Source of the DNA: an archaeon
Lineage (GTDB): Archaea; Nanobdellota; Nanobdellia; Pacearchaeales; DTIR01
Direction of reading: 5' to 3'
NCBI GenBank assembly: GCA_043799715.1
Contig: JAZDNM010000005.1
Coordinates: 4,859-68,858 of the forward strand
DNA length: 64,000 nucleotides
Shown one piece after another: positions 18,693 through 61,821 of the stretch. A program made the translations under genes and the position numbers. The notes under the pieces were generated by a model. The model did not search any database, had not been told where the DNA came from, and saw nothing but the letters and a program-made list of their open reading frames with translations. The number at the start of each line of letters is the position of its first letter. Position 1 is the first letter of the stretch.

Positions 18693-18743
18693 CGCGGCAG
18701 CCCCCTAAGCTGTAGGTTGCAGGTTCAAATCCTGCCAGGGACG
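18669..18743 (+). tRNA. tRNA-Arg(CCU), complete and intron-less, with C rather than U at position 33
   Basis: Acceptor GTCCCTG/CAGGGAC, D-stem GCGC/GCGC, anticodon stem GCAGC/GCTGT, loop CCCCTAA (CCT at 18704-18706), T-arm GCAGG-TTCAAAT-CCTGC, discriminator G, then TTTT. Confidence 0.8.
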
Positions 18744-18752
18744 TTTTGATAT

Positions 18753-23428: not shown

Positions 23429-23459
23429 ATGATTAAAAAACAAAGGTTATACTCAACAA

Positions 23460-26748: not shown

Positions 26749-26755
26749 TTGTTGC

Positions 26756-28219
26756 TTAAATCCCCTTTGCTCTTCTAATAGCATTATTTACCGCTGTTTT
26801 TAAGAATCCCTTTATCCCATTATGCCTTATGTAATCCAGATGCCACTTCTGTTTTTTGATTATCCACTTTAGATATTCCCCCCCATGTTTCTTGAAATAA
26901 GCCCGGTTTACTTTATTTATAACCCATTCCCTTAAATTGAATAGTTCTTCATTACTGAATTTTGTCAGATTTATATTAAATTCGGAATCATGCAATTTAT
27001 CAAGATATTTCTCTTCATTTTTTATTAATCCCCTTTCCTTGGTTTCTTCATACAAAGGAGTGCCGGGATAAGGTGTTACAAAGAACATGCTTGTTAATGA
27101 AATCTCATTTTTTACACAGAAATTAATTGTTTCTTGCAATGTTTCTTTTGTCTCTTCTGGAAATCCAATCATCCAACCCAAAGTTATCTCTATTCCCGAT
27201 AATCTTGTTACTCTTATTGCTTCTTCCATCTGTTCCAGTGTAACTTGTTTATTTGCCAGATTTATCAATTTAGGGCTTCCTGTTTCTATACCATATTGGA
27301 TAGCAACACAACCTGCTTTTTTCATTTCTCTTAGCAATTTAAGGTCATTCATTCCTACCAAATTGGTTCTTCCTGCACATCTCCAGTAGATCTTAAGATT
27401 CCTTTTTGCGAGTTCATTGCAAAAATCCTTGACCCATTGCTTGTACACCATGAACAAATCATCCATAAAATAGATTATATTCACATGATACTTCCTGTTC
27501 AATTCCTCTATCTCATCAACCACATTTTTTACTCCCCTCATGTGATTCTGATGCCCAAAAATATGATAGCAGTATGTGCAGTGATAAGGGCATCCCCTGC
27601 CTGCTGTGACAACCATCCCCTTTCCTTTAACTTCATCAAGCCTTTCAGCGACCATCTTACCAACGTACTTTTCCATAGGGAACAGTTGCCAAGCGGGGAA
27701 AGGAAGATTATCCAAATCACTTATTCTCTCTCTGTTCGGAGTTATTATTATCTCATCCTTATCTCTGAAAGCAATGCCTTTTATATCCTTCAAATTTTTT
27801 TCATGCTCTATTGCGTCAAGCAGTTCTATTATTGTCTCTTCACCTTCACCCCGGACAAGATAATCTATTTCAGAATTCTTCAGCAAAACTTCTGGAATAG
27901 AAGTAGCAACGCTATTGCCCGCGATTATTTTCGAGTTTGGATGATGCTTTTTGATTATTTGGGAGAGCCATTTTACATATCTGTAGGATTCTCCAAGGAT
28001 GGCTCCAGTGAGGAAGATTCCATATTTGCATGTGCGGATATACTCCTCGACTTTAGCAGAATCAATCTTGAACGCATTGATATCCAGAACTTTTATTTTG
28101 TATCCTGCTTTGGATAATACCGCTGCGATATAACCCAGACCCAATGGAAAGAACATTGCTCCTTGTAATGGGGGATTTATCAACAATAACTCTTCTCCTT
28201 GTTCTTTTTTATCATTCAT
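26756..28219 (-). CDS. B12-binding (class B) radical SAM enzyme, paralog 1
   Basis: N-terminal Rossmann-like LLLINPP...GLGYIAAVL..., a GEGE block and GRGCPYHCTYCYH (CxxxCxxC). Confidence 0.85.
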   Translation of the reverse strand: MNDKKEQGEELLLINPPLQGAMFFPLGLGYIAAVLSKAGYKIKVLDINAFKIDSAKVEEYIRTCKYGIFLTGAILGESYRYVKWLSQIIKKHHPNSKIIAGNSVATSIPEVLLKNSEIDYLVRGEGEETIIELLDAIEHEKNLKDIKGIAFRDKDEIIITPNRERISDLDNLPFPAWQLFPMEKYVGKMVAERLDEVKGKGMVVTAGRGCPYHCTYCYHIFGHQNHMRGVKNVVDEIEELNRKYHVNIIYFMDDLFMVYKQWVKDFCNELAKRNLKIYWRCAGRTNLVGMNDLKLLREMKKAGCVAIQYGIETGSPKLINLANKQVTLEQMEEAIRVTRLSGIEITLGWMIGFPEETKETLQETINFCVKNEISLTSMFFVTPYPGTPLYEETKERGLIKNEEKYLDKLHDSEFNINLTKFSNEELFNLREWVINKVNRAYFKKHGGEYLKWIIKKQKWHLDYIRHNGIKGFLKTAVNNAIRRAKGI

Positions 28220-28414
28220 TTTTCAAAGTTCAATTAAAAATCATCTCAACACATACATCTTGATTTCTTTGTTTTTGTAATTCTTTATTAGCCCCCTTAT
28301 GTTCTCATGTGAAAAATTCCATTTTTTAATTTATAATACTTGTGGATTGACTACTCTGCAATGAAATCTAGTTCATAAGCTTTTTAAATCATCCCCCATC
28401 TGTAAGGAAATCTT

Positions 28415-29527
28415 ATGAACCTACAAATGAAAAAATACAGGGCTGCGATAATTGGGCTTGGCAGAATGGGAAGTTTGACTAATTATATCAACCCCCAATT
28501 AAATGAAATATGGACTCATGCTGGTGCGTATAAAAATTGTGACAGGACAGAATTAGTTGCTGCATGTGATATACTTGATGAAAAAATAGAGTTTTTTGAG
28601 AGATTATGGGGCAAAGTAAACTTTTACAAGAATTACAAAGAGATGCTTTCCAAAGAAAAGCTGGATGTAGTAAGCATATGCACTTGGCCAAAAAGGCATC
28701 ATGAGATGGTTTTGGAATCTATAAAATCAGGCGTCAAGGCAATATATTGCGAAAAGCCAATTTCCCTTTGTTTGAATGAGGCAGACGAGATGATCAGAAC
28801 TGCAGAGAAGAATAATTCGATCTTAGGGATAAATTTCCAAAGAAGATGGGATAGCAAGTACATCAAAGTTAGAAAAATGCTGAATTCAGGGGATATTGGA
28901 AAATTGCAGACAATTGTAGGGTATTCTGACACCGCTTTATTGGAGAATTCTATCCATATGATAGATATTCTTAGATACTTTGCAGGGGATGTTGATTCTC
29001 TTTCTGCTGAAATTGATAGGGACTTTATCAGGATTGTTGATGGCAAAGCAGATCCTGGAGCGTGCATTAATTTCAATTTTAAGAATGGCACAAAAGGCTT
29101 TTTGAAAGCAACAGGAAAAAATCGTTTTTATCATGGATTTGAAGTTGATATGCAGGGCACAGAAGGAAGGATAAGGATAACAAATTTTGGCAGGGATTTT
29201 GAGTTGTGGAAATATGCTCCAAGCGAGGAGTACAAGGGATATCTTATGCATAAAAAGATGACATTTCCAAATGTGAAAAAAAATGAAAAAATGGTTGCTG
29301 CAGTAAATAATCTGCTTGATGCAGTTGAAGGGAAGGAGGAATGCATCTGCACAGGACGCGATGGAAAAGCCGCATTGGAAATAATAATCGCAGCACACAA
29401 GTCAGACAAAGAGAAAAGAAATGTTCAATTGCCGTTACCTATGGATGAAAAACTTATTGATGATATAACCTCTTATAGTGGACTGAATTTGTCCGGAGAA
29501 AATAGAAGCGGGGTGGATTTTAAGTAA
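28415..29527 (+). CDS. Gfo/Idh/MocA-family NAD(P)-dependent sugar oxidoreductase
   Basis: AAIIGLGRMG Rossmann motif and IYCEKPISL (EKP motif). Confidence 0.8.
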   Translation: MNLQMKKYRAAIIGLGRMGSLTNYINPQLNEIWTHAGAYKNCDRTELVAACDILDEKIEFFERLWGKVNFYKNYKEMLSKEKLDVVSICTWPKRHHEMVLESIKSGVKAIYCEKPISLCLNEADEMIRTAEKNNSILGINFQRRWDSKYIKVRKMLNSGDIGKLQTIVGYSDTALLENSIHMIDILRYFAGDVDSLSAEIDRDFIRIVDGKADPGACINFNFKNGTKGFLKATGKNRFYHGFEVDMQGTEGRIRITNFGRDFELWKYAPSEEYKGYLMHKKMTFPNVKKNEKMVAAVNNLLDAVEGKEECICTGRDGKAALEIIIAAHKSDKEKRNVQLPLPMDEKLIDDITSYSGLNLSGENRSGVDFK

Positions 29528-29528
29528 A

Positions 29529-30812
29529 ATGGCACTTGAAGAGAAACTTGCAATTTTCGGCGGGAAGCCAGTAAGAAATAGGGAATTCCCCCAATGGCCC
29601 ATTATTGGGCAGGAGGAGATAGATGCTGTAACCAATGTGCTGAAGTCAGGCAGACTTTCTACTTTCGCAGCTTCAAAGCAGTTTTTTCTTGGGGGCATGA
29701 AAATAAAGGAATTTGAGGATAATTTTGCGCAGTATCATTCTGTGAAACATGCAATTGCTGTGAATTCAGCTACTGCCGGTTTGCATTGTGCAATTGCAGC
29801 CTGCGGCATAGGCCCAGGGGATGAAGTGATTACAACACCCTATACTTTTACTGCAACTGCAACTTCCATTTTGCATGCTAATGCAATTCCAGTTTTTGCA
29901 GATGTTAATGAAAAGACATATTGCATCAATCCGAAAGAGATAGAAAAGAAAATAACTCCAAGAACAAAGGCAATAATCCCTGTTCATTTATTTGGAAATG
30001 CTGCAGAGATGGATGCTATAATGGAAATCGCAAAGGAATACAACCTTAGGGTAATAGAGGACTGCGCCCAGTCTCCTGGCACTAAATACAAAAACAAACT
30101 TGTTGGAACAATTGGAGACATGGGAGTATTTTCATTTCAGGAAACAAAGAATATCGCAACAGGGGAAGGGGGCATGATAACTACAAACAATGATGAACTG
30201 GCTTATGGGTGCAGGCTTGTAAGGAATCATGGCGAAGCTGTTGAGGGAACAGCAAGAACTTATTTTTCAAACATTCTCGGGTGGAATTACAGGATGACTG
30301 AGATGGAAGCAGCAGTAGGCATAGAGCAATTGAAAAAACTTGATAGATTGAACAGCGGCAGGAAACAGCTGGGGAATTATCTTACAGGAAGATTAAGTGA
30401 AATTGAAGGAATAACTCCTCCTTTTACTGAATCCTATGTGGATTATATCCCCCATGTTTATGTTATCAGTTTTGACAGCAAAAAAACAGGGATAAACAAA
30501 AAAACATTTATCAAGGCAGTTAATGCAGAGGGCATCCCCATTTCAGGGGGGTATCCTCATCCTCTTTACATGAACCGCCCATTCCAGGAAAAATCAGCCA
30601 GTAAAAATGGCTGCCCATTTAATTGCCATTATTACAATGGCAATGCAGATTACAGTAAAGGCTCATGCCCTGTTGTAGAAGATTTGTGCGAGAATAGGGC
30701 TGTATGGCTGCCCTTTGTCAGGCCTCCTGCAACATTAGAAGATATGGCGGATATCTCTCATGCTGTTGCCAAAGTGATAAAACATAAGGAGGACTTGAGA
30801 GATATAAAATGA
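29529..30812 (+). CDS. DegT/DnrJ/EryC1/StrS-family sugar aminotransferase
   Basis: NSATAGLHCAIAACGIGPGDEVITT, and FSFQETKNIATGEGG (PLP lysine region). Confidence 0.85.
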   Translation: MALEEKLAIFGGKPVRNREFPQWPIIGQEEIDAVTNVLKSGRLSTFAASKQFFLGGMKIKEFEDNFAQYHSVKHAIAVNSATAGLHCAIAACGIGPGDEVITTPYTFTATATSILHANAIPVFADVNEKTYCINPKEIEKKITPRTKAIIPVHLFGNAAEMDAIMEIAKEYNLRVIEDCAQSPGTKYKNKLVGTIGDMGVFSFQETKNIATGEGGMITTNNDELAYGCRLVRNHGEAVEGTARTYFSNILGWNYRMTEMEAAVGIEQLKKLDRLNSGRKQLGNYLTGRLSEIEGITPPFTESYVDYIPHVYVISFDSKKTGINKKTFIKAVNAEGIPISGGYPHPLYMNRPFQEKSASKNGCPFNCHYYNGNADYSKGSCPVVEDLCENRAVWLPFVRPPATLEDMADISHAVAKVIKHKEDLRDIK

Positions 30813-31591
30813 AAAATAAGCTTGAAAGAATGGTTGTGTTAACAGCAAATAGACCAAGGCACCAATACTACGCCCAAACCCTTTATGATTCATTTAATTC
30901 AGTTGCGGGGGTATTTATAGAAGACAAGAAGGTTCAGGAAAAAGTGAGGGATTCTTTAGATGAAACATCGCCTATTGTTAAAAACCATCTTGATGACTTC
31001 AAAGAAAAAGAAAAAGAATTTTTTGGAATCAAATTAGATATCCCTTCGAGTAAATTGCATTATACCGTGAATATAAATCAGGTTGCCAGAGAAATAAAAG
31101 AAATTGAGCCAGACATAATAACTGTTTTTGGTACAACACTAATCAAAGAGCCCCTGATTTCTGCTTGTAGCAAGATTGTCAATCTTCATTTAGGCTTATC
31201 CCCCTATTACAGGGGTAATGGAACAAATCTATTCTGTTTTTACAATAAAGAACTTGAATATATTGGCGCCACAGTGCATTTTCTGGATAAGAAGATTGAC
31301 GGCGGCATGATAATCAGCCAAGTAAGACCGGACATTGATACTGGAAAAGATACAATAAACACTATCAACTGCAAGGCAATTAAAAGGGGGATAGAAGAGG
31401 TAGTGCGAGTGGTAGAAATTTTACAGGATAGGGCTAAAGTACTAAGTCATAAACAGAATTTAAGCATTGGCCGGGTATATAAAAGTGAGGATTTTACAGA
31501 GGAAGTTTGTAAAACTGCTTATGAAAATGTTGAAAAGGGATTGATAGGAAATTATAAGCCAAAGGAGGTTCGGATTTACACGTTAAAATGA
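30809..31591 (+). CDS. Formyltransferase-domain protein (sugar N-formyltransferase-like)
   Basis: IVNLHLGLSPYYRGNGT...GATVHFLDKKIDGGMIISQ matches the H-x-SLLP-x2-RG ... D core of formyl_trans_N. Confidence 0.65.
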   Translation: MKNKLERMVVLTANRPRHQYYAQTLYDSFNSVAGVFIEDKKVQEKVRDSLDETSPIVKNHLDDFKEKEKEFFGIKLDIPSSKLHYTVNINQVAREIKEIEPDIITVFGTTLIKEPLISACSKIVNLHLGLSPYYRGNGTNLFCFYNKELEYIGATVHFLDKKIDGGMIISQVRPDIDTGKDTINTINCKAIKRGIEEVVRVVEILQDRAKVLSHKQNLSIGRVYKSEDFTEEVCKTAYENVEKGLIGNYKPKEVRIYTLK

Positions 31592-32307
31592 AGAAAGGAA
31601 ATATTTTTGGGGTTATCACAGCAAGGGGCGGCTCAAAAGGCGTTCCGAGAAAAAATGTTCGTGATTTGTCAGGAAAACCGCTTATTGCATACACAATTGA
31701 AGAAGCGCTAAAAAGCAATTTGCTGGATAGGGTAGTAGTTTCCACTGATGATGCGGAAATTGCTGAAATCTCGCGAAAATATGGGGCAGAAGTGCCATTT
31801 ATGAGGCCAGCAGAACTTGCAACAGACACAGCACATCATCCGGAAGTGATAGAGCATGCGGTGTCCTGGCTGGAAAGTCATGATAATTATCCTGTTTATG
31901 CAGTTATGACGTTGCAGCCAACATCGCCTTTAAGGACTGCAGAGCATATAGACAAAGGCATTGAAAAGTTTTTGTCAAGCGACTTTGATTCTCTTGTATC
32001 ATTGAAATTTGCATTCCCCCCATATTGGGTTAAAAAGTTGGAAGGGGATTATGCAGTTCCTTTTATTGAGTACAAAAGAGGAATCAATCCCCATAATTTA
32101 GAAAGGCAGCAGCTGCCTTTGGTATATCAGATTGATGGTGCAATATTCATCACAAAGAGAGATTATCTCAAGAAAACAAATTCTTTGATAAGTTTGGATA
32201 ACTGCAGTTATATCCTACTTGATGATGCAAACGCGTCATTAGATATTGATTCAGAGGAGGATTTTAAGATGATTGAAGAGATAATTTCAAAGAAAAAGAC
32301 AAAATGA
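31588..32307 (+). CDS. Acylneuraminate (nonulosonic acid) cytidylyltransferase-like, NeuA/PseF/LegF family
   Basis: GVITARGGSKGVPRKN N-terminal motif, QPTSPLR, and GAIFI. Confidence 0.8.
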   Translation: MKKGNIFGVITARGGSKGVPRKNVRDLSGKPLIAYTIEEALKSNLLDRVVVSTDDAEIAEISRKYGAEVPFMRPAELATDTAHHPEVIEHAVSWLESHDNYPVYAVMTLQPTSPLRTAEHIDKGIEKFLSSDFDSLVSLKFAFPPYWVKKLEGDYAVPFIEYKRGINPHNLERQQLPLVYQIDGAIFITKRDYLKKTNSLISLDNCSYILLDDANASLDIDSEEDFKMIEEIISKKKTK

Positions 32308-33455
32308 CAAAAAGAAAAATCGCAGTGCTTACTGGTGCAAGAGCGGATTATGGAAGAATCAAATCTGTTCTTGATGCAATAAAAAAACATCCAAAATTGG
32401 ATTTATCCCTGATAGTCACAGGCATGCACCTTGTGCCCGAGATGGGCAATAGCTACAAATTGATAGAGCAGGATGGTTTTGATATAGATGCAAAAGTCCC
32501 TATGTATTCCCATGCAGGAGATACCGGAGGGGCTATGGTTAAGGATTATGCAAAATGCACATCAGGGATGGCGGATGCATTGGATAGGATTAAGCCAGAT
32601 ATCTTCCTGATAAGCGTTGACAGGGTTGAAACACTTGCAGGAGCGGTTGCAGGAGCTTTTATGAACCTCCCTCTGGCGCACATCCAGGGCGGGGAAGTAA
32701 CCGGCACAATAGATGAGAATATCAGGCATGCTGTTACTAAATTTAGCCATGTACATTTTCCAGCCAATAAAGATGCTGCGGACAGGATAATAAGCATGGG
32801 GGAAAATCCAAAATATGTCTTTACTGTGGGATGCCCTTATTTTGATATTATCCACAATTTGGATTATACAAGTAAAGAAGAGCTCGTTAAACAGTTTGGG
32901 CTCAATCCAAATAAACCTCTTGCCCTATTTGTGCAGCACCCAGTTACAACAGAAGAAAAGGACTCTGCAAGGCAGTTCTTCAACACATTTGAAGCCCTGA
33001 AAAAATTTGATTTGGAAACAATCCTCCTCTATCCAAATATTGATGCAGGGGGCAAGAGGATAATTGAAGAAATAAAGAAGAGCAATGCAAAACACTATAT
33101 GGTTCTGCCATTTAGGACATATTTAAGCTTGCTAAAAATATCAGATTTTATGATAGGCAACAGCAGCAGCGCAATTAGGGAAGCACCGACATTCAAGCTG
33201 CCTGCGGTGAATATAGGGACAAGACAGCAGGGCAGGCAGAGATCCTCCAATGTAATCAATGTAGGCTATGAAACTGCTGAAATTGTCAAAGGCATTGAGA
33301 AAGTTCTTTACGACAAGGAATTCAGGGAGAATCTTAATACTTGCGAGAATCCCTACGACCCCTTTGCTGATGGCAAGGGCGGGGAGAGAATCGCAAATAT
33401 CCTGGCTGATTTAGATTTAAAGATGCTGCCTATACAAAAGAGGATGACCTACTGA
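32304..33455 (+). CDS. UDP-N-acetylglucosamine 2-epimerase (hydrolysing), NeuC/LegG-like
   Basis: IAVLTGARADYG...DR.E.L......LP.AHI.GGE.TG..D...RHA.TK..H.HF pattern. Confidence 0.75.
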   Translation: MTKRKIAVLTGARADYGRIKSVLDAIKKHPKLDLSLIVTGMHLVPEMGNSYKLIEQDGFDIDAKVPMYSHAGDTGGAMVKDYAKCTSGMADALDRIKPDIFLISVDRVETLAGAVAGAFMNLPLAHIQGGEVTGTIDENIRHAVTKFSHVHFPANKDAADRIISMGENPKYVFTVGCPYFDIIHNLDYTSKEELVKQFGLNPNKPLALFVQHPVTTEEKDSARQFFNTFEALKKFDLETILLYPNIDAGGKRIIEEIKKSNAKHYMVLPFRTYLSLLKISDFMIGNSSSAIREAPTFKLPAVNIGTRQQGRQRSSNVINVGYETAEIVKGIEKVLYDKEFRENLNTCENPYDPFADGKGGERIANILADLDLKMLPIQKRMTY

Positions 33456-33514
33456 AGGATAAACTTAAAACATATTTCATAAGGTATAAATAGGGTTCAA
33501 AATTTTCAACTAAA

Positions 33515-34471
33515 ATGAAAGTATTAATTACAGGAGGTTCTGGGCTTATTGGTTCTGCTCTTGCTGAACGCCTTGTAAAAAAAGGGGTGGATGTTAATGT
33601 CTTGGATAAAAGAAAAAATCTTAATTTGCCTGGAGTAAACCTAATTCAGGGCAGTATCCTAAACAAAGGGGACTTGAAGAGAGCTGTTAAAGATTGTGAT
33701 TATGTATATCATCTCGCTGCAATTGTAGGCGTTAATCTCGCTGATGGCAGAGCTCTTGAATGCCTTGATGTGAATATAATCGGGACAAGGAATGTATGTG
33801 AAGCAAGTTTGCAGGTAGGAGTCAAGAAAATTCTATTTGCGTCTTCTTCAGAGGTGTATGGAGAGCCGGATAAACTGCCTATTTCAGAGGATTTTTTACT
33901 TAAACCGAAATCAGCATATGGATGGAGCAAGGCCGTTGGAGAAGAGTACTGCAAGGCATTCAAGAAGAATGAGGGGTTAGACTACTCTGTTGTGAGATTC
34001 TGTAATGTTTATGGCCCAAACCAAGCTTTAAAGTTTGTGCTGCCTTTGTTCATAAACAATGCATTATCAAATAAATCCTTAGAGATATACGGTTCTGGTG
34101 AACAAATCAGAAGTTTCTGTTATGTGGATGATGCAGCAAGAGGCACAGAGCTGGTCATGATGTCCCCAAAGACGAATTCAGATGTATTTAATATAGGCAA
34201 CCCAAATGAGCCTATAAGCATGAAGGACTTGGCAAAAAAAGTATTAGACCTAGCGGGGATTAAGGGCAATCATGTTTTTGTTCCGCTTGAGAATTATAGG
34301 TCTCCTGCCAGAGAGATACAAAAAAGAATTCCGGACATCAGCAAATCGCATAAAACTGTTGGATTTAAACCCGAAATCAATTTGGATGAGGGTCTCAAAA
34401 GAGTTATAGAATTTAAAAAGAAGGAGAAAGAGACCGGGGAGTTTATAACTCCTACAATAGACCACGATTAA
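33515..34471 (+). CDS. NAD-dependent sugar epimerase/dehydratase (extended SDR)
   Basis: VLITGGSGLIGSAL, SSSEVYG, YGWSKAVGE (YxxxK). A TATA-like GGTATAAATAGG lies about 27 nt upstream. Confidence 0.85.
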   Translation: MKVLITGGSGLIGSALAERLVKKGVDVNVLDKRKNLNLPGVNLIQGSILNKGDLKRAVKDCDYVYHLAAIVGVNLADGRALECLDVNIIGTRNVCEASLQVGVKKILFASSSEVYGEPDKLPISEDFLLKPKSAYGWSKAVGEEYCKAFKKNEGLDYSVVRFCNVYGPNQALKFVLPLFINNALSNKSLEIYGSGEQIRSFCYVDDAARGTELVMMSPKTNSDVFNIGNPNEPISMKDLAKKVLDLAGIKGNHVFVPLENYRSPAREIQKRIPDISKSHKTVGFKPEINLDEGLKRVIEFKKKEKETGEFITPTIDHD

Positions 34472-34487
34472 ACTTATTTTTTCTTTT

Positions 34488-35948: not shown

Positions 35949-36030
35949 TTGATTATACTCTTAAAAGGATATTTATATTCGGAAAATTGAGAAAGGTTTA
36001 AAAAGCTTGTTAAAAACGGTTACTATACTT

Positions 36031-38859: not shown

Positions 38860-38902
38860 ATATTAATATTAAAAATATTCTTTTAAAGCTTATGAATGCG
38901 AG

Positions 38903-40291
38903 TTAACTCCTGCAGATTTTGTAATCTCCTTCCTCATAGAAAACCCTGAAATTTTCTGATTCAAAAATGCTTTCGCCTTGGCACTGGATGTTTGTATCAA
39001 GGACATTTCTTTTCAAGTTGAATATAACGGGCTGCCCTAGATAATAAGCTAAAGCAGAGCTTGTAAACTCGTCATTCGTTATGAATGTGCCTGTTGCATT
39101 CTGCTGCTTTAATACAGCATTTACGTCCAGAATCTGGCTGTCAATTTGATGCATATGCCCTGCTATTCCAAAAGCAGAGATAGTTGAAACTGCGCAGAAC
39201 AAGATAACAACTCCATAGCAAATCTGCCTTGCTCTAATGCTCTTTATGCTTTCAATAAACTTTGCTGTGAAAATGAAAAGGAAAATCCATAAGGGAAAGG
39301 TGTATCTTCCGGCATCCCCGCTTAATAGAAGCAGAAAAGTCCAGTAAATAAACGTAAATGCAAGTAACGGCAGCATAAGCAAAATATGCTCTTTATACTT
39401 CCTGCTATATTTAAACAAGGCAAGGATTATCATAAGAGAAAGTCCTGCTGTTAAGATAAGTGCCCCAAGATAATAAATACTGTAGATAAAAGCAAGGCTT
39501 CCAGAGAATGAAACTTTTGTTTGCAGGGGGATCTCCCAGAAATAATGGTATGCAAGAATAAATGAAGCAAAATATTCTTTTAAGCTATGCAATGAAGCCG
39601 GATTAAGGGTAACGCCTATGAACGCCCTCCCAGTTGTCAGATAGTTTTTAATTGGCCAGAACAAGGTAAGTAAAGCGCCTGTTGCTATAAAAAGAAGAGA
39701 TTTAATCTTTATTTTCCATTCTGCCTTTTTTCCAAGTATGTAAAGCCCGAAACCCATTGTGAGTATATATCCTGTTTGTTTTGCCAAAATCATCAGGCAT
39801 GTCAGGGAGATTAAGGCAAAAATCCATTTGCCTTTGGGCTTTTCTATATATTCCTCCAAACTTAAGAATAATGCCAGAACAAAAAAGGCAATAATCATCT
39901 CCTGCATTATTGTAACGCTAAGCAACAAAGTCCAAGTTGAAAAAAGAAATAAGGAAAGGGCAATAATCTGCTCTTTTTTATTAAGCTTGAATCTTCTGAA
40001 TGTCGCGGGCAGCAGAAAAAGAATGGCAATAAAAAAGATTAATGAAGTAGATTTCCAGGCAATCCAGAGCAGGTTGCCCTTGAGAAATAGCATCCAGAAT
40101 GCCTCTAGTATTATGAGCAGGGGAAAATCATAAAAATTAAAATTCCAGTGCAGGATTTTCTCTGCATTTGGAAGATATCTTATTACAGGATCCGCGAACA
40201 TGCTTATTGGCGCAATAAATAGCAAGGTAAGGCGGATAATTACCGCCAGGGCTATAACAGAGATAACCGCCCCTTTGTAATCTAACTTCAT
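38903..40291 (-). CDS. Polytopic membrane protein, GT-C-like (ArnT/PMT_2-type) glycosyltransferase candidate
   Basis: 462 aa, about 11-12 TM helices followed by a soluble C-terminal domain. Confidence 0.4.
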   Translation of the reverse strand: MKLDYKGAVISVIALAVIIRLTLLFIAPISMFADPVIRYLPNAEKILHWNFNFYDFPLLIILEAFWMLFLKGNLLWIAWKSTSLIFFIAILFLLPATFRRFKLNKKEQIIALSLFLFSTWTLLLSVTIMQEMIIAFFVLALFLSLEEYIEKPKGKWIFALISLTCLMILAKQTGYILTMGFGLYILGKKAEWKIKIKSLLFIATGALLTLFWPIKNYLTTGRAFIGVTLNPASLHSLKEYFASFILAYHYFWEIPLQTKVSFSGSLAFIYSIYYLGALILTAGLSLMIILALFKYSRKYKEHILLMLPLLAFTFIYWTFLLLLSGDAGRYTFPLWIFLFIFTAKFIESIKSIRARQICYGVVILFCAVSTISAFGIAGHMHQIDSQILDVNAVLKQQNATGTFITNDEFTSSALAYYLGQPVIFNLKRNVLDTNIQCQGESIFESENFRVFYEEGDYKICRS

Positions 40292-40360
40292 ATTTCCAAT
40301 CAGGATTAGTGATTTATTAATATTACTAAAATTTATATATCAAAAATATTTTATGGGAGC

Positions 40361-40990
40361 ATGGCAAGCCATCTTGTAATGGAGAAAGAGCATATGAATA
40401 AGCTTTACAATTCAAAGAATTTTCTTGTCAGATTTTTCCATAACCAAAGGCTGAATTCTATTCTCCACTTTATTCCTGAAAAACAAGCAAACTTGAAGGT
40501 GCTTGATGCTGGCTGCGGTGAAGGGCACTTGCTTGAGGCAATTTATCAAAAAAATCCAAAGCTTAAGCTTTATGGTGTCGATGTGACAAAAATTGCCTTG
40601 TCTTCAACAAAAAAGAGATTAAAAGGAAAAGCAAAGATTTCAATGCAGGACATTACAAAATTAAAGTTTCCCAAGGGATATTTTGATATTATAATCTGTT
40701 CAGATGCCTTAGAGCATATTTTTGACTATAACCAAGCAGTTTCCAATCTGAAAAATGCGGCAAAAAACAAGGGGATTATCATAGTGAGCTATCCCAATGA
40801 GTTAAATCTGATAATTTCGAGATTTCTAATGGGCATAACTCCAGCAAAAGCGCAGGATCATGTAAACTCTTTCTCTCCAGTAAAAATGAAAAAAGAATTT
40901 AACCTGCCTGTTGCAGAGCAGTTTAATCTTCCGGTAAATCTTCCTTTTATTTTTTCGCTTGAAGCGGTTCAGGCATTTACAAAGAAATAA
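40361..40990 (+). CDS. Class I SAM-dependent methyltransferase
   Basis: VLDAGCGEGHLL motif I and IICSDALEHI. ATTTATATAT is centred about 26 nt upstream. Confidence 0.8.
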   Translation: MASHLVMEKEHMNKLYNSKNFLVRFFHNQRLNSILHFIPEKQANLKVLDAGCGEGHLLEAIYQKNPKLKLYGVDVTKIALSSTKKRLKGKAKISMQDITKLKFPKGYFDIIICSDALEHIFDYNQAVSNLKNAAKNKGIIIVSYPNELNLIISRFLMGITPAKAQDHVNSFSPVKMKKEFNLPVAEQFNLPVNLPFIFSLEAVQAFTKK

Positions 40991-42472: not shown

Positions 42473-42473
42473 T

Positions 42474-43973: not shown

Positions 43974-44090
43974 TTTTGTTAGTTCTTTAAAGTAGGAACA
44001 AAATTTGATTTATTAACATTTCGTTTCCTATCAAAGCAATTTGACAAAGTGACAAAAAGGTTTAAATTGCTTGTGGAAATTATATCCCCT

Positions 44091-44810
44091 ATGAAGAAAA
44101 AAGGGAATAGCTTATCAGTAATAATCCCTGCATACAACGAAGAAAAAAGAATTTCAAGAACTATAAATCTGATTCTTTCTTATCTCCAGCATAGAAACTA
44201 TTCATTAGAAATTATTGTTGTTAATGATGGCTCAACAGATAATACTCTGCAGGCTGTCAGGAAGATTAAAGGAAAAGCAATAAAAATAATCACTTACAGC
44301 AAAAATCAAGGCAAGGGATACGCTGTTAGGAAAGGCATGCTTGCCGCGAAGAATAATCTGGCTTTGCTCTGCGATGCTGATTTAAGCACGCCGATTGAAG
44401 AGCTCGGCAATTTTATGAAATTTGTAAAAAATAATGATATCATTGTAGGTTCAAGGGTTCTGCCTGGACATAAAATCGTCAGAAAGCAGCCATTTTTTAG
44501 GGTAATGCTGGGCAGGCTTTTTATTGGCATTATAAAAATAGTTTTAGGTACAGATATTCAGGACACACAATGCGGATTTAAGCTCTTTAAGAACTGCAAA
44601 TCTCTATTCAAGAAACAAAAAATAAGGGGATTTGCATTTGATGTCGAAATATTGGCTTTAGCCAAGAAGCAGGGCATGAGTATACTGGAACTGCCGATTG
44701 TATGGAAAAATGCCGCTGGAAGCAAGGTAAATCCTCTGGGAGATTCACTGAGAATGTTCAAGGACATCTTTAGAATAAGAGAAAATTTTATTAACAGAGC
44801 ATATAAATAA
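44091..44810 (+). CDS. GT2 glycosyltransferase (dolichyl-phosphate hexose synthase-like)
   Basis: LSVIIPAYNEE, VVNDGSTD, CDADLS (DxD), QCGFKLF. ATG 44091 lies about 27 nt after AGGTTTAAATTGC. The tracker start at 44049 is GTG. Confidence 0.8.
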   Translation: MKKKGNSLSVIIPAYNEEKRISRTINLILSYLQHRNYSLEIIVVNDGSTDNTLQAVRKIKGKAIKIITYSKNQGKGYAVRKGMLAAKNNLALLCDADLSTPIEELGNFMKFVKNNDIIVGSRVLPGHKIVRKQPFFRVMLGRLFIGIIKIVLGTDIQDTQCGFKLFKNCKSLFKKQKIRGFAFDVEILALAKKQGMSILELPIVWKNAAGSKVNPLGDSLRMFKDIFRIRENFINRAYK

Positions 44811-44828
44811 TTTTTAAATCTCTGCCTC

Positions 44829-46346
44829 ATGCTGTCAAAGTCAAAAATGAAAAATAAAATCCTACTGCTTAATCCTAACTGGAGACATTTGGAAAAAGTG
44901 GGTAGGATGAGCAAGATAACCAGCGGCATTCCGCTTGAGCTGCTTTATATTGCCGGTAGCCTTAAAAAATTAAATTTGGAGTTTAAGATTATTGACTTAT
45001 GGGGCTCTGATAAAAATCTGCAGGATTTCAAGCCAGAAATTTCTGATGCATCAATAATAGTCATAAATACCGCTCCTTCTTATCTCTACTGGCGTGATGG
45101 GACAATAGACTGTGAGCTGCCTAGAAAGATTGTCCAAGAAGTAAGGGCAATGAACCCCCAAATAAAGATAATAGTAATAGGCCCTCATGGCACGGTACTG
45201 CCAGAAAGCATAGCCTCAAAGGATATTGATTACCTTATTAGAGGAGAGCCAGACTTGATAGCAGCAAAATTGATTGAAAAAATAATAAAAAACAAGATAG
45301 GAGAATTAAAAGGTGTTTGTGAATGGCAAGGCAAGAAATTTCACGTGAGCAAGGATTATGCAACAGTTAATAATCTTGATGAAGTGGATGCGCCCTATGA
45401 AATTCTAGACATTAAAAATTATTCAATCCCGGAGTACCCAAAAAAAGACAGGAAAAAAATCACAACCTACTATGAGGCAAGCAGGGGCTGCCCATTTGAC
45501 TGCATTTTCTGCTTCAGGGAGGGATTCAGGGGAAAATTGAGATTTAAAAGCCTAAAAAAAATTTCTGCGGACTTGGGGAAATTGAAGAAGCTGGGAGTGG
45601 GATATATTTACTTTATTGATGAATGTTTTGGCTTTGACATACCCTGGTTCAGAAAGCTTCTTGGAATTTTGAAGAAATATCGGATAGAATGGGGATGCCA
45701 GACCAGGCCGCATTTATGGAACAAGAAAAGAATAATCGAAGCTGCAAAGAATGGATGTGTCCTGATGGAGATGGGCATAGAATCCGCGAACAAGAGGGTG
45801 CTTAATGCATTAAACAAGGAATCAACTGATTTAAGCGTAGTAAAGGAGAATGTTAATACCATGCTTTCATTTGGCATAACTCCGGGTTTGAGTTTTATAG
45901 TGGGCTCGCCTTATGAAACAAAAGAAACAATAAAAGAGATAAAAGATTTCCTGCTCCAATTTCCGGCAGACAAGGTGCTCATCGGCTGCCATATTATGCT
46001 GCCATACCCCAAAACAAAATTGTGGAATCTTGGATTAAAAGAGGGCATCCCCTTGCATTCCTGGCCTGATGTGAGAAGATATGCAGGAGTGATTCATAAT
46101 GATTTTAAAGAGCCAAAAGAGGTTAATCTGGAGATTAAAAGGCTTTTAAGTTATTTAAGAGTCAAAAAAGCAGCGAGCAGGATGCGTGCAGCCTTAAAAG
46201 AAAGGGCATTGGCAAATTTCATGAAAAATTTTATAATCCTCGTCGGCAGCAAAGTTATCATAGCACTCCCCAGAATAACGCCTTTATTTGAAAAAACAAT
46301 GAATTTGTTCAAATCTGGAAAATTTGCGACTAATGATTACCTGTAA
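44829..46346 (+). CDS. B12-binding (class B) radical SAM enzyme, paralog 5 (divergent)
   Basis: ILLLNPNW..., RGEPD in place of GEGE, and SRGCPFDCIFCFR. An alternative start is at 44847. Confidence 0.8.
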   Translation: MLSKSKMKNKILLLNPNWRHLEKVGRMSKITSGIPLELLYIAGSLKKLNLEFKIIDLWGSDKNLQDFKPEISDASIIVINTAPSYLYWRDGTIDCELPRKIVQEVRAMNPQIKIIVIGPHGTVLPESIASKDIDYLIRGEPDLIAAKLIEKIIKNKIGELKGVCEWQGKKFHVSKDYATVNNLDEVDAPYEILDIKNYSIPEYPKKDRKKITTYYEASRGCPFDCIFCFREGFRGKLRFKSLKKISADLGKLKKLGVGYIYFIDECFGFDIPWFRKLLGILKKYRIEWGCQTRPHLWNKKRIIEAAKNGCVLMEMGIESANKRVLNALNKESTDLSVVKENVNTMLSFGITPGLSFIVGSPYETKETIKEIKDFLLQFPADKVLIGCHIMLPYPKTKLWNLGLKEGIPLHSWPDVRRYAGVIHNDFKEPKEVNLEIKRLLSYLRVKKAASRMRAALKERALANFMKNFIILVGSKVIIALPRITPLFEKTMNLFKSGKFATNDYL

Positions 46347-46347
46347 G

Positions 46348-47241
46348 ATGAAAAGAAGAATATTTGTCACTGGCGCGACTGGATTCATTGGAAAGCACCT
46401 TGTTAATGAATTAATATCCCAAAAAATGAATGTTGTCTGCCTTATACGGAAAAAAGAGCAGGCCAGTATCTTCAGGAAATCCGAAAGCCTGAAATTTCTA
46501 ATAGGAGAGATTAAAGATACAGAAAGAATAAGCAAGCAATTAAGGCAGGGGGATATAGTGGTTCATCTGGCAAATATTTCTGATGGACTGAATTATGAAG
46601 ATTTCTATAAGGTAAATGTTAAAGGCACTAAAAATCTGGTTTTGCTTTGTGAAAAAATCAAAATCAAAAAGTTTATTTTCCTCAGCTCAACAGTTGTTTT
46701 GGGTAATTTTAACAGCCCCTATACCGAGACCAAAAGGCTTGCAGAGGATATTGTAAAGAAATCCTCGCTTAATTATGTGATTTTAAGGCCGGATATGGTG
46801 TATGGAATAAATAGCAAGAGGCACATTCTTGACCTTGTAGAGGAAATCAAAAATAAAAAAGTAAAAATTGTCTTTGGCTACCAGCATGTCCGTATCAGGC
46901 CGGTTTACATAGGAGATGTGGCGAGAGCAATAATCAACTCAATCAAGGCAGAAAAAATTACAAGGGAAGTATACAATATAATCTCTGAACAAATTTCCTA
47001 TGGGGAACTTTTTAAGCTCATAAAAAAGAGAACAGGGAGCAGATGCCTGATGATTTTTGTGCCAAGATTTTTTGCCCTATTTTTGGCAAGGACATACACG
47101 ATTTTAAATAAAAATTCCACTCTTTATGACTGGATAAAAGGAAATGAAGATAAACCATATGATTTATCCGAATCAACGAGAGATTTGGGCATTTCTCCCA
47201 TCCCAATCTCAAAAGGGCTGGATATTCTGCTGAAATCCTGA
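46348..47241 (+). CDS. NAD-dependent epimerase/dehydratase
   Basis: IFVTGATGFIGKHL and YTETKRLAE (YxxxK). ATG 46348 begins 2 nt after the upstream stop. Confidence 0.8.
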   Translation: MKRRIFVTGATGFIGKHLVNELISQKMNVVCLIRKKEQASIFRKSESLKFLIGEIKDTERISKQLRQGDIVVHLANISDGLNYEDFYKVNVKGTKNLVLLCEKIKIKKFIFLSSTVVLGNFNSPYTETKRLAEDIVKKSSLNYVILRPDMVYGINSKRHILDLVEEIKNKKVKIVFGYQHVRIRPVYIGDVARAIINSIKAEKITREVYNIISEQISYGELFKLIKKRTGSRCLMIFVPRFFALFLARTYTILNKNSTLYDWIKGNEDKPYDLSESTRDLGISPIPISKGLDILLKS

Positions 47242-47247
47242 TTGAGG

Positions 47248-48726
47248 TTATTGGCTGCGAAGAAAATTTATCCTCTTTATCAGTTCATTAAATCCTTCTC
47301 TTTGGTAGTAGGCATGCGCCTTTTGTATTACCCTTAAATTTATTTTTATATTCTGCATTATCCCCCTTGGCAGCCAATAAAAAAATTCGGAGTAAAGGTT
47401 GTACTTTCTCGCCTCTGAAAATATCTGGGGCAGTTTGGTAAGCTTAAGTTTGCTGTCTATTGTTTCAAACAAGCACATATAGTGCGCCTTTATTCTATCT
47501 TCTTTTGTGAAGTCTGGAGTTTCCACCACAGGTTCATTTGCCCTGAAATCTCCTTCTGCAAGGGATGTGTGCCCTATCTCATTATAGAGAGTACCATTCT
47601 TTTCAAACCACTCACGAATTGGCGTGCTTTTGTAGGGCATTACTATATTCCAATATATTGAGTCGGGCTTTAATTTTTGAGCAAATTTTATTGAGGCCTT
47701 TATTCTTTTTAGATTATCTCCAGGTAGGCCAATAATAAAACCCAAGCTAAGCAGCATCTTATATTTGTTGACAAGCTTCGCGGCTTTCTCAATTTGTTCG
47801 AGGGTCTCCCCCTTGTTGACTTGCTTGAACACTTCAGGATGCGCATGTTCCACACCCAATCCAACAGCATTGCAGTTTGCTTTTTTAAGAGAGACAAGCA
47901 GCTCTTCATTCACATCATCCGCCCTTATATTGGTTATATCCAGCCTTAACTTTATCTTTTCTGCATAGAGCTTTAGAAATCTGTAAAATCTTTCTTTGTC
48001 TACAAGCGGATTGTCATCCTGTACGAGAATATGGAGATTTGGAGCAATTGTTTGCATTGCGTGTTCTATTTCTCTAATGCAGCTTTCAGGCTTCCTCGGG
48101 CGCCATAATTTGCCGGATACAGAAACAACAGGGCAGAAACTGCATCGATAAGGGCAGCCTCTTGAAGTCATTATAGAATATGCCCGAATATACTCCCATT
48201 TGTAAAAAACCCTATATTCCGGGAAAGGCACATCTTCGGGGTTGACTATCTCTGTTGTTCTTATTATTACCGCCTTATCCTCTTTTTTTGCATTTTCAAC
48301 AGCATCAATAACAGTCAGTTCAGCCTCGCCTATAACAATGTAATCCACTCTTTTGTCCTCCTGCATTTCATCAGGATAAAGGGTGGGATGGGGTCCGCCA
48401 ACAATTATCGGAATTTCTTTATTAAAATTGTTGATTTCTTCAAGAATCAACTCTGCTTCCCCTGTATTGGCGGTATATATTGAAACACCTATCACATCTG
48501 GTTTAAACTTATCAATGAAAGAAGTTATATGCGGGGCGCGGGGTATCAGATTATAATCCACAACAAGAATGTCATGCCCCCTTTTTTTGAGTATTGAGGC
48601 AAGGATAGCTATGCCCATGTGCGGAACTCTGGATGTTGCAGTACTCCTTTGCGGATTCACAAATAAAACCTTTTTTTCTTTTTTTTCTGCAACTTTTATT
48701 ATGTTTCTCAGATGTTCAGATTGCAT
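47248..48726 (-). CDS. B12-binding (class B) radical SAM enzyme, paralog 6
   Basis: VLFVNPQ..., IGEAE, and SRGCPYRCSFCPV. Confidence 0.85.
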   Translation of the reverse strand: MQSEHLRNIIKVAEKKEKKVLFVNPQRSTATSRVPHMGIAILASILKKRGHDILVVDYNLIPRAPHITSFIDKFKPDVIGVSIYTANTGEAELILEEINNFNKEIPIIVGGPHPTLYPDEMQEDKRVDYIVIGEAELTVIDAVENAKKEDKAVIIRTTEIVNPEDVPFPEYRVFYKWEYIRAYSIMTSRGCPYRCSFCPVVSVSGKLWRPRKPESCIREIEHAMQTIAPNLHILVQDDNPLVDKERFYRFLKLYAEKIKLRLDITNIRADDVNEELLVSLKKANCNAVGLGVEHAHPEVFKQVNKGETLEQIEKAAKLVNKYKMLLSLGFIIGLPGDNLKRIKASIKFAQKLKPDSIYWNIVMPYKSTPIREWFEKNGTLYNEIGHTSLAEGDFRANEPVVETPDFTKEDRIKAHYMCLFETIDSKLKLTKLPQIFSEARKYNLYSEFFYWLPRGIMQNIKINLRVIQKAHAYYQREGFNELIKRINFLRSQ

Positions 48727-51325: not shown

Positions 51326-51376
51326 TTTAGCTGATTGTTTCTTAAACTTTATAAAGCTTTACGAACTATTTTGCAT

Positions 51377-60703: not shown

Positions 60704-60785
60704 AAATCAGATATTTCAAATCTTTTTAAATAGCTTATGATTCCCAATTCATAAACTTTAAAAGTTGTTTTTGGTTTTGCTTGTG

Positions 60786-61820: not shown

Positions 61821-61821
61821 T

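Follow-up and report, generated by a model that had tools for sequence, protein, structure and literature searches.

What do six radical S-adenosylmethionine (SAM) enzymes of the cobalamin-dependent type contribute to the surface-glycan gene cluster of a DPANN-type archaeon? This question is raised by a 64,000-nucleotide stretch of contig JAZDNM010000005.1 (assembly GCA_043799715.1, forward strand, positions 4,859 to 68,858; Pacearchaeales), which was analyzed over its full length and is called the window here. A preliminary description, made from the letters of the window, had reported six open reading frames (ORFs) with the layout of class-B, cobalamin (B12)-dependent radical SAM enzymes, lying among glycosyltransferase (GT) and other sugar genes. 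All six were recovered where that description had placed them. They are labeled R1 to R6 in order of position (Table 1), and related loci and related proteins carry numbers beginning with L and P, respectively. Our results suggest, with slightly better than even confidence, that the six, plus a seventh radical SAM enzyme of SPASM type, are tailoring enzymes of a surface-glycan pathway that work in two different contexts, R1 and R2 in a nonulosonate-type module and the others with GT2, GT-C, and GT4 partners.

The radical SAM domain (Pfam PF04055) scored 71-90 bits in all six ORFs and the SPASM ORF, with about 72-90 bits for the six alone (gathering score 29.5). The B12-binding domain PF02310 exceeded its gathering score of 32.1 in R1, R2, R3, R4, and R6, with 47.5-94 bits. 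The earlier claim that all six carry this domain is thus borne out above threshold for five of them; R5 reached 26.4 bits, and most of its close homologs also have no recorded PF02310 match. In a six-way alignment, the RGCP-x2-C-x2-C (CxxxCxxC) cluster was invariant and an acidic GE(G/A/P)(E/D) block was present in every sequence, as had been described, but the reported N-terminal motif (I/L)LL(I/V/L)NP(P/N/Q) proved looser, reading ILLVYPP in R3 and VLFVNPQ in R6. The AlphaFold models of R3 and R5 (predicted local distance difference test, pLDDT, 92.5 and 89.1) reproduced the two domains of the class-B layout. The top Foldseek matches of R3 were MgmA (E=2e-26), TsrM, and AprD4, and its model matched MgmA, TsrM, OxsB, TokK, and CysS across both domains. 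Those of R5 were AprD4 (TM-score 0.64-0.73), CysS, and TsrM, and its model has an N-terminal Rossmann-like beta-alpha-beta domain, that is, a two-domain fold of class-B type.

The six ORFs had been regarded as a paralogous set. This description suits R1 and R2, which share about 46% identity, but every other pair shares only 23-35%, and judged by these values R1 to R6 are six old, distinct subfamilies rather than a recent expansion. A recent tandem duplication was ruled out by the identities of 23-35%. R1, R3, and R5 have homologs at 62-85% identity, and the syntenic contig L003 carries orthologs of R3, R4, R5, and R6 at 778-995 bits, which shows that these are real genes and not chance ORFs. 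The closest homologs of the six come from metagenome-assembled genomes (MAGs) of Nanoarchaeota and Woesearchaeota. An exact-sequence look-up of R1 returned no record, and a metagenome scan with R1 peptide patterns gave only two irrelevant matches (21-22%), the single-sequence patterns being too specific.

Membership of known families was judged by NCBIfam model scores, used as a proxy for a phylogeny with characterized enzymes. None of the six reached an equivalog cutoff, the best scores being 119-239.5 bits against cutoffs of 360-750 bits. The best model was BchE (TIGR02026; 101-239 bits over the six, cutoff 481) for R1, R2, and R6, and TIGR04295, a B12/radical SAM family of the "rhizo-twelve system", for R5. 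Both lie far below their cutoffs, and chlorophyll genes are absent from the window. Many database homologs bear the name BchE, but this identity was rejected on scores under half of the cutoff and the lack of chlorophyll context; the names are similarity-transfer annotations. HpnJ (TIGR03471, cutoff 577.6) was best for R3 with 239.5 bits and gave 103-176 bits for the others, and R3 is not a member of that family. The P-methyltransferase models PhpK (TIGR04479, cutoff 600) and Sden_1168 (cutoff 575) were not reached either, the best score being that of R4 at 222 bits, and MgmA/QCMT (TIGR04014) gave 60-138 bits against 360. The AprD4 diol-dehydratase model (NF033070) gave 40-118 bits against 500, over the radical SAM half only. 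Matches to PDB sequences were all weak and comprised AprD4 (radical SAM half only; top match for R1 to R5), 9CCB, OxsB, TsrM, TokK, and CysS. The closest solved cobalamin-binding structure is 9CCB, which is MgmA/QCMT, the methyl-coenzyme M reductase glutamine C-methyltransferase, and has the class I B12-radical SAM architecture. It matched both domains of R1 to R4 but only the radical SAM half of R5 and R6. However, the identity is 23%, and MgmA modifies a protein in methanogens, where its gene has unrelated neighbors.

Some of the better partial matches of R1 to R4 were to peptide-modifying enzymes, namely ApyD (153-185 bits) and the ribosomally synthesized and post-translationally modified peptide (RiPP) C-methyltransferase model TIGR03975 (95-105 bits), and SPASM enzymes are often peptide maturases. 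The six could accordingly be read as RiPP maturases (like PoyB/C, ApyD, or TIGR03975) or as modifiers of an S-layer or pilin acceptor before its glycosylation. We consider such peptide or protein targets very improbable. All these scores are far below cutoff, sugar enzymes neighbor every related locus, and protease, transporter, and leader-recognition genes are missing. From 26 to 64 kb, every ORF of 50 aa or more is annotated and intergenic gaps do not exceed 195 nt. A precursor gene of that length would have no room there, and the RiPP maturase reading was rejected for this lack of space.

The neighborhoods point in another direction. Nearly every gene from 25.2 to 63.9 kb was sugar-related in Pfam and NCBIfam scans. 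The cluster includes three GT2 and two GT4 genes, several short-chain dehydrogenases/reductases (SDRs), a CE4 deacetylase, two methyltransferases, Wzx, NeuC, a CMP-sugar synthetase, Alg13/14-like and AsnB-like genes, and a GT-C gene. The neighbors listed in the preliminary description (GT2, GT4, GT-C, epimerases, deacetylase, and methyltransferases) were thus confirmed, as was its remark that the six do not lie among cofactor or lipid genes, since sugar genes surround all of them.

The most strongly conserved neighborhood is that of R3. Homologs with 56-83% identity occur in Nanoarchaeota, Woesearchaeota, Altiarchaeota, a Methanobacterium MAG, Patescibacteria, and one deltaproteobacterium (for example, L004 and L010 from Patescibacteria, L007 and L009 from Altiarchaeota, and L086 from Methanobacterium). 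They form a single cluster in a 50%-identity library, the next relative standing at 47%. Judged from its sequences, this orthogroup indicates strong constraint and horizontal transfer among groundwater ultra-small organisms. A small GT2 gene and a gene for a protein of ~470-570 aa with 9-12 transmembrane (TM) segments lie one to four genes from R3 in L001, L003, L004/5/8, L006, L009, L010, L011, and L086. Often there is a class I methyltransferase gene beside R3 too, and genes like MT209 of the window adjoin R3 orthologs in L001, L006, and L011. The equivalent of this triad in the window is M462-methyltransferase-R3-R4-GT2a, in which the R4-R3 pair is also kept in L001 and L003. Fusions were found as well: R3-type enzymes are joined to a flippase-like membrane domain (PF03706, LPG_synthase_TM) in P0010 and P0013, and a methyltransferase is joined to R3 in P0033. 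In L088, a PF03706 gene adjoins another class-B gene.

Profile comparisons defined both partners of R3. A profile of nine small GT2s adjacent to radical SAM genes, including GT2a and GT2b of the window, matched Pyrococcus DPMS (5mlz) over its full length (137 bits, E=7e-39), ArnC over its full length (100-105 bits), and GtrB over most of the profile (103 bits), and other GT2s matched it only in the N-terminal nucleotide-binding half. The membrane partners of R3 match PMT/PMT_2 in L009, L010, L011, L004, and L086. A joint GT-C profile (A5), which includes the window protein encoded at 61795-63429, matched ArnT (5ezm, E=1e-17) and Pmt2 (E=8e-9), and the loop-1 Asp-Glu pair (D67-E68) is invariant in it. 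The M462 family aligned with the GT-C profile over 326 columns (hhalign 97.6%, E=3e-12). Its own profile had no match among PDB sequences, and its kinship to GT-C comes from the profile-profile comparison alone.

R5, R6, and the SPASM gene also keep glycan-related partners. The R5 family is small (~22 members at 36% identity or more), and its C-terminal hydrophobic helix is kept in the close relatives. An operon GT2a-R5-SDR with overlapping genes is present in the window and in L003. In distant genomes, R5 relatives are part of GT4/GT2/Wzx/Bac_transf operons, and in one case a GFO oxidoreductase gene follows immediately. The pairing of R6 with a GT4 is kept in the closest relatives, L001 and L003; the ortholog in L003 scores 942 bits and adjoins the GT4. 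The seventh radical SAM enzyme, which had been placed at 60786, was verified as a SPASM protein by PF04055 and PF13186 (64 bits for the latter, gathering score 21.5). It also reached no equivalog cutoff, its best model being the tungsten-cofactor oxidoreductase radical SAM maturase TIGR04317 (147 bits, cutoff 380). SPASM radical SAM genes recur in the glycan loci L001, L092, and L095.

The setting of R1 and R2 is different. They bracket an operon (28415-34471) that codes for a GFO oxidoreductase, a DegT aminotransferase, a formyltransferase-like protein, a CMP-transferase, NeuC, and a LegB-like dehydratase. The R1/R2 family is looser, with homologs at 62% and then at 50-40% identity. NeuB genes are present in the related loci L003, L092, L093, and L094, and R2 relatives occur in three NeuB-containing loci, L093 (65% identity), L092 (53%), and L094 (46%). 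In L093, the R2 ortholog adjoins a NeuB-cupin gene and CTP_transf_3. L092, from a DPANN relative that shares synteny and the SecDF-LAGLIDADG-Wzx frame with the window, has the order transferase-like, CTP_transf_3, NeuB, epimerase, SPASM, HAD, methyltransferase, SPASM, methyltransferase, R2-like, and Wzx, and thereby shares the pairing of a radical SAM gene with Wzx seen at 25213-28219. In L094, from Margulisbacteria, the order is DegT, R2-like, GFO, CTP_transf_3, and, further on, NeuB, and the pairing of a radical SAM gene with GFO recurs in L094 and L096. Homologs of the 646-aa GT (36919-38859) adjoin CTP_transf_3/NeuB in L003, L092, and L093. The description of the region as one glycan cluster can be kept insofar as all six are embedded among glycan genes, but it covers at least two types of context, the nonulosonate-precursor setting of R1/R2 and the GT2/GT-C/GT4 setting of R3 to R6.

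These recurring pairings also bear on chance co-location, the possibility that a variable genomic island gathered unrelated accessory genes. In its favor, gene flux is concentrated at surface-glycan loci, R1 to R6 are divided between the two strands, and the phyla of their closest relatives differ. However, R3 with GT2 and GT-C, R4-R3, GT2a-R5-SDR, R6-GT4, and R1/R2 with nonulosonate genes recur in independent lineages, several pairs overlap or nearly abut in one operon, and fusions join R3 to partner domains. Mere chance is the least probable of the explanations considered and can hardly be credited.

As to substrate class and stage of action, we infer the following scheme. R1 and R2 would act within the nonulosonic-acid/amino-sugar module and modify a soluble activated sugar or its precursor. 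The substrates of R3, R4, R5, R6, and the SPASM enzyme would be lipid-linked sugars at the cytoplasmic face of the membrane. There, a DPMS/ArnC-like GT2 would load a monosaccharide on dolichyl or polyprenyl phosphate, and an unactivated carbon of this sugar would be altered by a radical SAM enzyme, in some cases together with a class I methyltransferase or an SDR reductase. After flipping, a GT-C enzyme would transfer the product on the outside; alternatively, GT4s would build it into a Wzx-flipped oligosaccharide. Tailoring at the stage of the lipid-linked sugar is known from ArnD deformylation and from DprE1/E2. In three-component pentofuranose systems, an auxiliary epimerase tailors the lipid-linked sugar before transfer (PMC11127046), and HpnI/HpnK/HpnJ and Cds act on lipid-linked sugars as well (PMC13459092). 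The three-component systems (GtrA/GtrB/Gtr*, ArnC/ArnD/ArnT, and polyprenyl-phosphoribose synthase/MATE/GT136) resemble the loci studied here in the genes to either side of the tailoring gene, namely a DPMS/ArnC/GtrB-like GT2 and a PMT/ArnT-like GT-C. To our knowledge, no three-component system with a radical SAM tailoring step has been known.

What the enzymes would do to the sugar is a further question. Class-B enzymes are among the largest groups of enzymes that are still unexplored. They fall into more than 100 sequence groups, the largest unstudied, and each characterized group includes C-methyltransferases (PMC12931638). Cobalamin-dependent C-methylation is, by analogy, the most likely reaction for the members with a strong B12 domain, because it is the most frequent class-B chemistry. 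Sugar C-methylases of class B are exemplified by GenK, GenD1, Fms7, and MoeK5 (PMC12931638). GenK, GenD1/GntE, Fms7, and MoeK5 are like the window enzymes in having an N-terminal B12-type Rossmann domain and a radical SAM TIM barrel with CxxxCxxC, and they act on unactivated sugar carbons. MoeK5 works on a lipid-linked glycan. However, GenK, GenD1, Fms7, and MoeK5 belong to actinomycete secondary metabolism, and the comparison with them is one of layout. Unlike the GenK group, R1 to R6 belong to a primary surface-glycan locus, found in a DPANN-type archaeon and in bacteria of the candidate phyla radiation (CPR), beside DPMS-like GT2 and GT-C genes.

The same pathway role could also be filled by non-methylating chemistry: dehydration or deoxygenation completed by SDR or GFO reductases, epimerization, oxidation to keto-sugars, or a carbocycle-forming ring contraction, in some cases without cobalamin. 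The closest model is AprD4/AprD3, a radical SAM 1,2-diol dehydratase with an NADPH reductase that deoxygenates C3' of an aminoglycoside sugar. AprD4 is the top PDB sequence match for R1 to R5 and the top fold match for R5, whose B12 domain is sub-threshold and whose family mostly has no recorded PF02310. The gene arrangement mirrors AprD4 plus AprD3, since R5 overlaps and is translationally coupled to an SDR gene, and GFO genes adjoin R1 and its R-like relatives in L094 and L096. For R5 with its overlapping SDR, an AprD4/AprD3-like dehydration-reduction (deoxygenation) would therefore be an equally good guess by analogy, and the pairs of radical SAM and GFO genes may perhaps perform this type of reaction too. 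On the other hand, NF033070 is far below its cutoff, AprD4 matches only the radical SAM half, and AprD4 has no cobalamin, whereas the N-termini of R3, R4, and R6 match PF02310 strongly (73-94 bits).

The second model of this kind is HpnI/HpnK/HpnJ with Cds, in which a lipid receives a sugar from a GT2, deacetylation may follow, and the lipid-linked sugar is then rearranged by a radical SAM enzyme (PMC13459092). HpnJ is the best or nearly the best NCBIfam model for R3 and R2, and a CE4 deacetylase gene adjoins R2, as in HpnI/K/J. However, the HpnJ scores are far under cutoff, the cluster is without hopanoid or tetraether genes, and ring contraction would presumably destroy the glycosyl-phosphate that a downstream GT-C needs. 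A ring contraction of the HpnJ/Cds type is thus less likely for R3 where GT-C must still use the product as its glycosyl donor. Considering also that C-methyltransferases are present in every characterized class-B group (PMC12931638), we regard non-methylating chemistry for the set as possible but rather unlikely.

A lipid, rather than a sugar, could also be the target. Methylation, cyclization, or cross-linking of isoprenoid chains, as by HpnP/HpnR, GrsA/B, Gmm, and Tes, might affect the dolichol or polyprenol carrier or host lipids taken up into the membrane, while the nearby GTs merely use the modified lipid. The fusions of R3-type enzymes to the PF03706 membrane domain, the C-terminal hydrophobic helix of R5, and the occurrence of a cis-prenyltransferase (5822-6547) and a CDP-alcohol phosphatidyltransferase (22706-23428) in the window are in line with this, and class-B enzymes are well known in the tailoring of hopanoid and tetraether lipids (PMC13459092). 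But there are no lipid-biosynthesis genes interleaved with the six, which also argues against membership in GrsA/B, Cds, Gmm, or Tes, and the HpnR, HpnJ, and ladderane-lipid models are far below cutoff. Moreover, R1/R2 relatives lie in operons for soluble nucleotide sugars (NeuB/DegT/CMP-transferase), and R5 relatives lie between cytoplasmic GT4 genes. Lipid targets are improbable on these grounds.

Several observations weigh against the tailoring scheme or against its C-methylation branch. The GGxH motif is present in R3, R4, and R6 but not in R1/R2, where R1 reads GNSV instead. The closest solved relatives include AprD4, which binds no cobalamin, and the fold search did not separate cobalamin binders from AprD4. 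AprD4 and ArsL stand in the same similarity network as class-B enzymes yet bind no cobalamin, and the fold alone is no proof of binding; likewise, the non-methylating members are indistinguishable from the methylases by sequence (PMC12931638), a point that also favors the non-methylating alternative. The use of cobalamin by the six enzymes is thus only predicted, and C-methylation would be only one possibility for a chemistry that is not readable from the sequence. Furthermore, DPANN and CPR organisms are generally reduced in cofactor biosynthesis. A tblastn search detected no NeuB in the 64-kb window, so that the R1/R2 module is incomplete here. In L007 the GT2 gene lies several genes from R3, and L088 has no GT2 on the available sequence. 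The 26-64-kb region showed neither a small GtrA-like membrane ORF nor an evident dedicated flippase by the sets of GT2, radical SAM, and GT-C genes, and the only flippase-type gene is the Wzx/MATE-like one at 25213; this differs from the three-component systems, whereas relatives have PF03706 adjoining or fused to a radical SAM enzyme. Finally, adjacency fixes neither the order of steps nor the substrate, and all of the enzymes could instead have nucleotide sugars as substrates.

The arrangement extends beyond the archaea and is shared by Patescibacteria, Margulisbacteria, and others. The survey comprised 52 loci of at least 12 kb carrying R3-like proteins, from many phyla. At least two class-B genes were present in 34 of the 52 loci, at least three in 21, and at least four in 13, and in at least 24 a glycosyltransferase was detectable by the GTs of the window, which is a lower bound. 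The superfamily is very large: at E<=1e-30 to R3, it comprises 15,862 50%-identity clusters. A gene cluster with six such enzymes stands at the high end of a general, uncharacterized pattern. In Anaerolineae/Chloroflexota loci (L040, L045-L080), class-B arrays are built around a SPASM gene in the order R-R-SPASM-R-R, and in L045 and L057 these arrays are preceded by Alg14-Alg13-like GT genes. They represent a putative second, bacterial type of radical-SAM-rich glycan or glycolipid locus. In addition, polyproteins of 1,700-2,600 aa (P0367, P0401, P0411, P0410, and P0489) contain two to five tandem class-B modules; in P0367, CxxxCxxC occurs about every 510 residues, at 23, 551, 1062, 1581, and 2086. 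Such fusions of tandem modules suggest that these enzymes work in series.

In the open-access literature that was searched, no paper was found on B12-type radical SAM enzymes in glycan clusters of DPANN, CPR, or Patescibacteria, and none that pairs such enzymes with GT-C, with polyprenyl-phosphate systems, or with nonulosonic, pseudaminic, or legionaminic acid loci. This agrees with the earlier statement that no pathway of this kind had been described. A known enzyme superfamily and a known logic of glycan assembly occur here in an undescribed combination. Of the findings that had been named beforehand as telling against a glycan role, none was made: no known non-glycan family was reached by NCBIfam scores, the linkage to glycosylation genes is kept in distant genomes, and the B12-binding domain was detected above threshold in five of the six.

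Several uncharacterized class-B subfamilies thereby gain a testable substrate hypothesis, polyprenyl-phosphate sugars and nonulosonate precursors, with defined partner genes. If the tailoring scheme is true, it would add a new type of tailoring step to the three-component glycosylation scheme and would predict as yet unsought sugar structures, such as C-methyl or deoxy sugars. A broader proposal, which we consider doubtful, is that radical SAM (class-B or SPASM) tailoring of polyprenyl-phosphate monosaccharides, by C-alkylation, deoxygenation, or another change at an unactivated carbon, is an unrecognized class of step in prokaryotic glycan assembly, that it spread horizontally among ultra-small episymbionts (DPANN and CPR), Altiarchaeota, and some methanogens, and that six or seven such enzymes stacked in one locus produce heavily radical-modified, possibly multiply C-methylated glycans with scavenged cobalamin. 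In DPANN and CPR organisms, the genome is tiny and life depends on host contact. The investment of six or seven Fe-S (possibly B12) enzymes in surface glycans suggests a role in attachment, in evading recognition by host or phage, or in both, and would imply dependence on external cobalamin if B12 is used. The R3 orthogroup, at least 56% identical across two domains of life, marks gene flow among these organisms.

Table 1. Genes of the glycan cluster (positions in the window), with the evidence for each assignment; NCBIfam scores of R1 to R6 are for the best model against its cutoff
Feature	Position	Strand	Evidence and remarks
Wzx/MATE-type polysaccharide flippase	25213-26748	+	Pfam Polysacc_synt 73 bits, MatE, MurJ; 14 predicted TM; convergent with R1
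R1, class-B-type radical SAM, 487 aa	26756-28219	-	PF04055 72.8 bits, PF02310 56.2 bits; BchE 228 vs 481 bits
GFO/IDH/MocA NAD-dependent sugar oxidoreductase	28415-29527	+	Pfam; IolG-like and archaeal UDP-GlcNAc 3-dehydrogenase NCBIfam matches sub-threshold; divergent from R1
DegT-family sugar aminotransferase, PseC/LegC-like	29529-30812	+	PF01041 366 bits; PseC 267, LegC 229 bits, both below cutoff
Formyltransferase-like N-acyl transferase	30809-31591	+	PF00551 46 bits; no NCBIfam match
CMP-sugar (nonulosonate-type) cytidylyltransferase	31588-32307	+	PF02348 86 bits; PseF 163 vs cutoff 206 bits
NeuC/NnaA hydrolyzing UDP-GlcNAc 2-epimerase	32304-33455	+	TIGR03568 424 bits, above cutoff 236
SDR sugar 4,6-dehydratase/epimerase, LegB-like	33515-34471	+	PF01370 203 bits; LegB 161 bits, sub-threshold
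R2, class-B-type radical SAM, 486 aa	34488-35948	-	PF04055 90 bits, PF02310 47.5 bits; BchE 184 vs 481 bits
CE4 polysaccharide deacetylase	36007-36918	+	PF01522 80.5 bits; divergent from R2
646-aa capsule/nonulosonate-transferase-like GT	36919-38859	-	Weak Epimerase_2, Glyphos_transf, polysialyltransferase, Capsule_synth; BFO_1060-family GT 103, TIGR04396 66 bits, both sub-threshold
M462, 9-TM GT-C-fold relative (DUF8201-like)	38903-40291	-	9 predicted TM; weak PMT_2 E=0.019; profile-profile match to GT-C
MT209, class I SAM methyltransferase	40361-40990	+	Methyltransf_31/23/11
R3, class-B radical SAM, 493 aa	40991-42472	-	PF02310 94 bits, PF04055 85 bits; HpnJ 239.5 vs 577.6 bits, BchE 238.6 vs 481 bits
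R4, class-B radical SAM, 499 aa	42474-43973	-	PF04055 82, PF02310 73 bits; one-base gap upstream of R3, same operon; Sden_1168 P-methyltransferase (NF038361) 222 vs 575 bits
GT2a, small polyprenyl-phosphate sugar synthase-like GT2	44049-44810	+	PF00535 95 bits; weak NCBIfam PgfS, AglJ, Dol-P-hexose transferase, ArnC, PpgS
R5, class-B-like radical SAM, 505 aa, C-terminal hydrophobic helix	44829-46346	+	PF04055 72, PF02310 26.4 bits (below gathering score); TIGR04295 148 vs 400 bits, N-terminal two thirds only
SDR (3-beta-HSD/epimerase-type), overlaps R5 end	46324-47241	+	PF01073 and PF01370, 107 bits each; weak NCBIfam: reductases, LegB, HpnA
R6, class-B radical SAM, 492 aa	47248-48726	-	PF04055 82, PF02310 79 bits; BchE 119 vs 481 bits
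GT4 glycosyltransferase	48849-49979	+	PF00534 103 bits
FemAB-like acyl/aminoacyl transferase	49981-50613	-	Weak FemAB and Acetyltransf_6
236-aa protein, no assigned family	50615-51325	-	
M518, 8-TM 518-aa membrane protein, overlaps GT2b stop	51335-52891	+	8 predicted TM; no Pfam/NCBIfam match
GT2b, small polyprenyl-phosphate sugar synthase-like GT2	52888-53622	-	PF00535 81 bits; weak NCBIfam AglJ, PgfS, Dol-P-hexose transferase
SDR dehydratase/epimerase	53688-54731	-	Pfam, NCBIfam
GT4	54779-55915	-	Pfam, NCBIfam
dTDP-glucose 4,6-dehydratase-like	55973-56956	+	Pfam, NCBIfam
GT2c	56972-57964	-	Pfam, NCBIfam
Asparagine synthase-like amidotransferase	57942-59762	-	Pfam
Alg13-like	59750-60205	-	Pfam
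Alg14-like	60209-60703	-	Pfam
Radical SAM + SPASM, seventh radical SAM; ATG at 60786; overlaps next GT-C gene	60765-61820	+	PF04055 71 bits, PF13186 64 bits
GT-C glycosyltransferase, PMT_2/ArnT-like, 9 TM	61795-63429	+	PMT_2 76.8 bits

Some neighboring genes deserve separate mention. Comparison of M518 with the GT-C profile gave no clear match either way, and the protein could be a polymerase, a ligase, or a divergent GT-C. The FemAB-like gene and a gene for a ~240-aa protein are kept as a pair beside the ortholog of the first GT4 in L001 (3133-4492), and L003, where the contig ends, shows just the FemAB-like gene next to the GT4 (1-747); the pair may point to aminoacyl or peptide branching of the glycan. 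Directly upstream of Wzx, the genes at 22706-25191 (+) code for the CDP-alcohol phosphatidyltransferase (22706-23428), a TagD-like cytidylyltransferase (23460-23894, with an FHIGH motif), an SDR, and a DUF2284 metal-binding protein, and may constitute a module for decoration with a CDP-alcohol or phospho-alcohol. The cis-prenyltransferase gene on the plus strand, 20 kb upstream, belongs to the undecaprenyl/dolichyl diphosphate synthase family (247 bits), which fits with an organism that makes its own polyprenyl carrier.

Outside the cluster, the window also encodes PolD DP2, RpoD with Fe-S motifs, S13, DUF655, a 5S rRNA, and two tRNAs. These genes identify the host as an archaeon, and the Nanoarchaeota and Woesearchaeota origin of the closest homologs of the six makes a DPANN lineage probable. 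The 5S rRNA gene (16391-16502, minus strand, 69 bits) stands alone, with no 16S or 23S gene adjoining it within the window. An ORF at 17691-18692 (+) has a weak LAGLIDADG-like domain (E=9e-4, below gathering score) and overlaps the start of the tRNA-Arg(CCT) gene (18668-18744, +) by ~25 nt. In the syntenic locus L092, a LAGLIDADG_3 ORF lies in the same place beside SecD/SecF.

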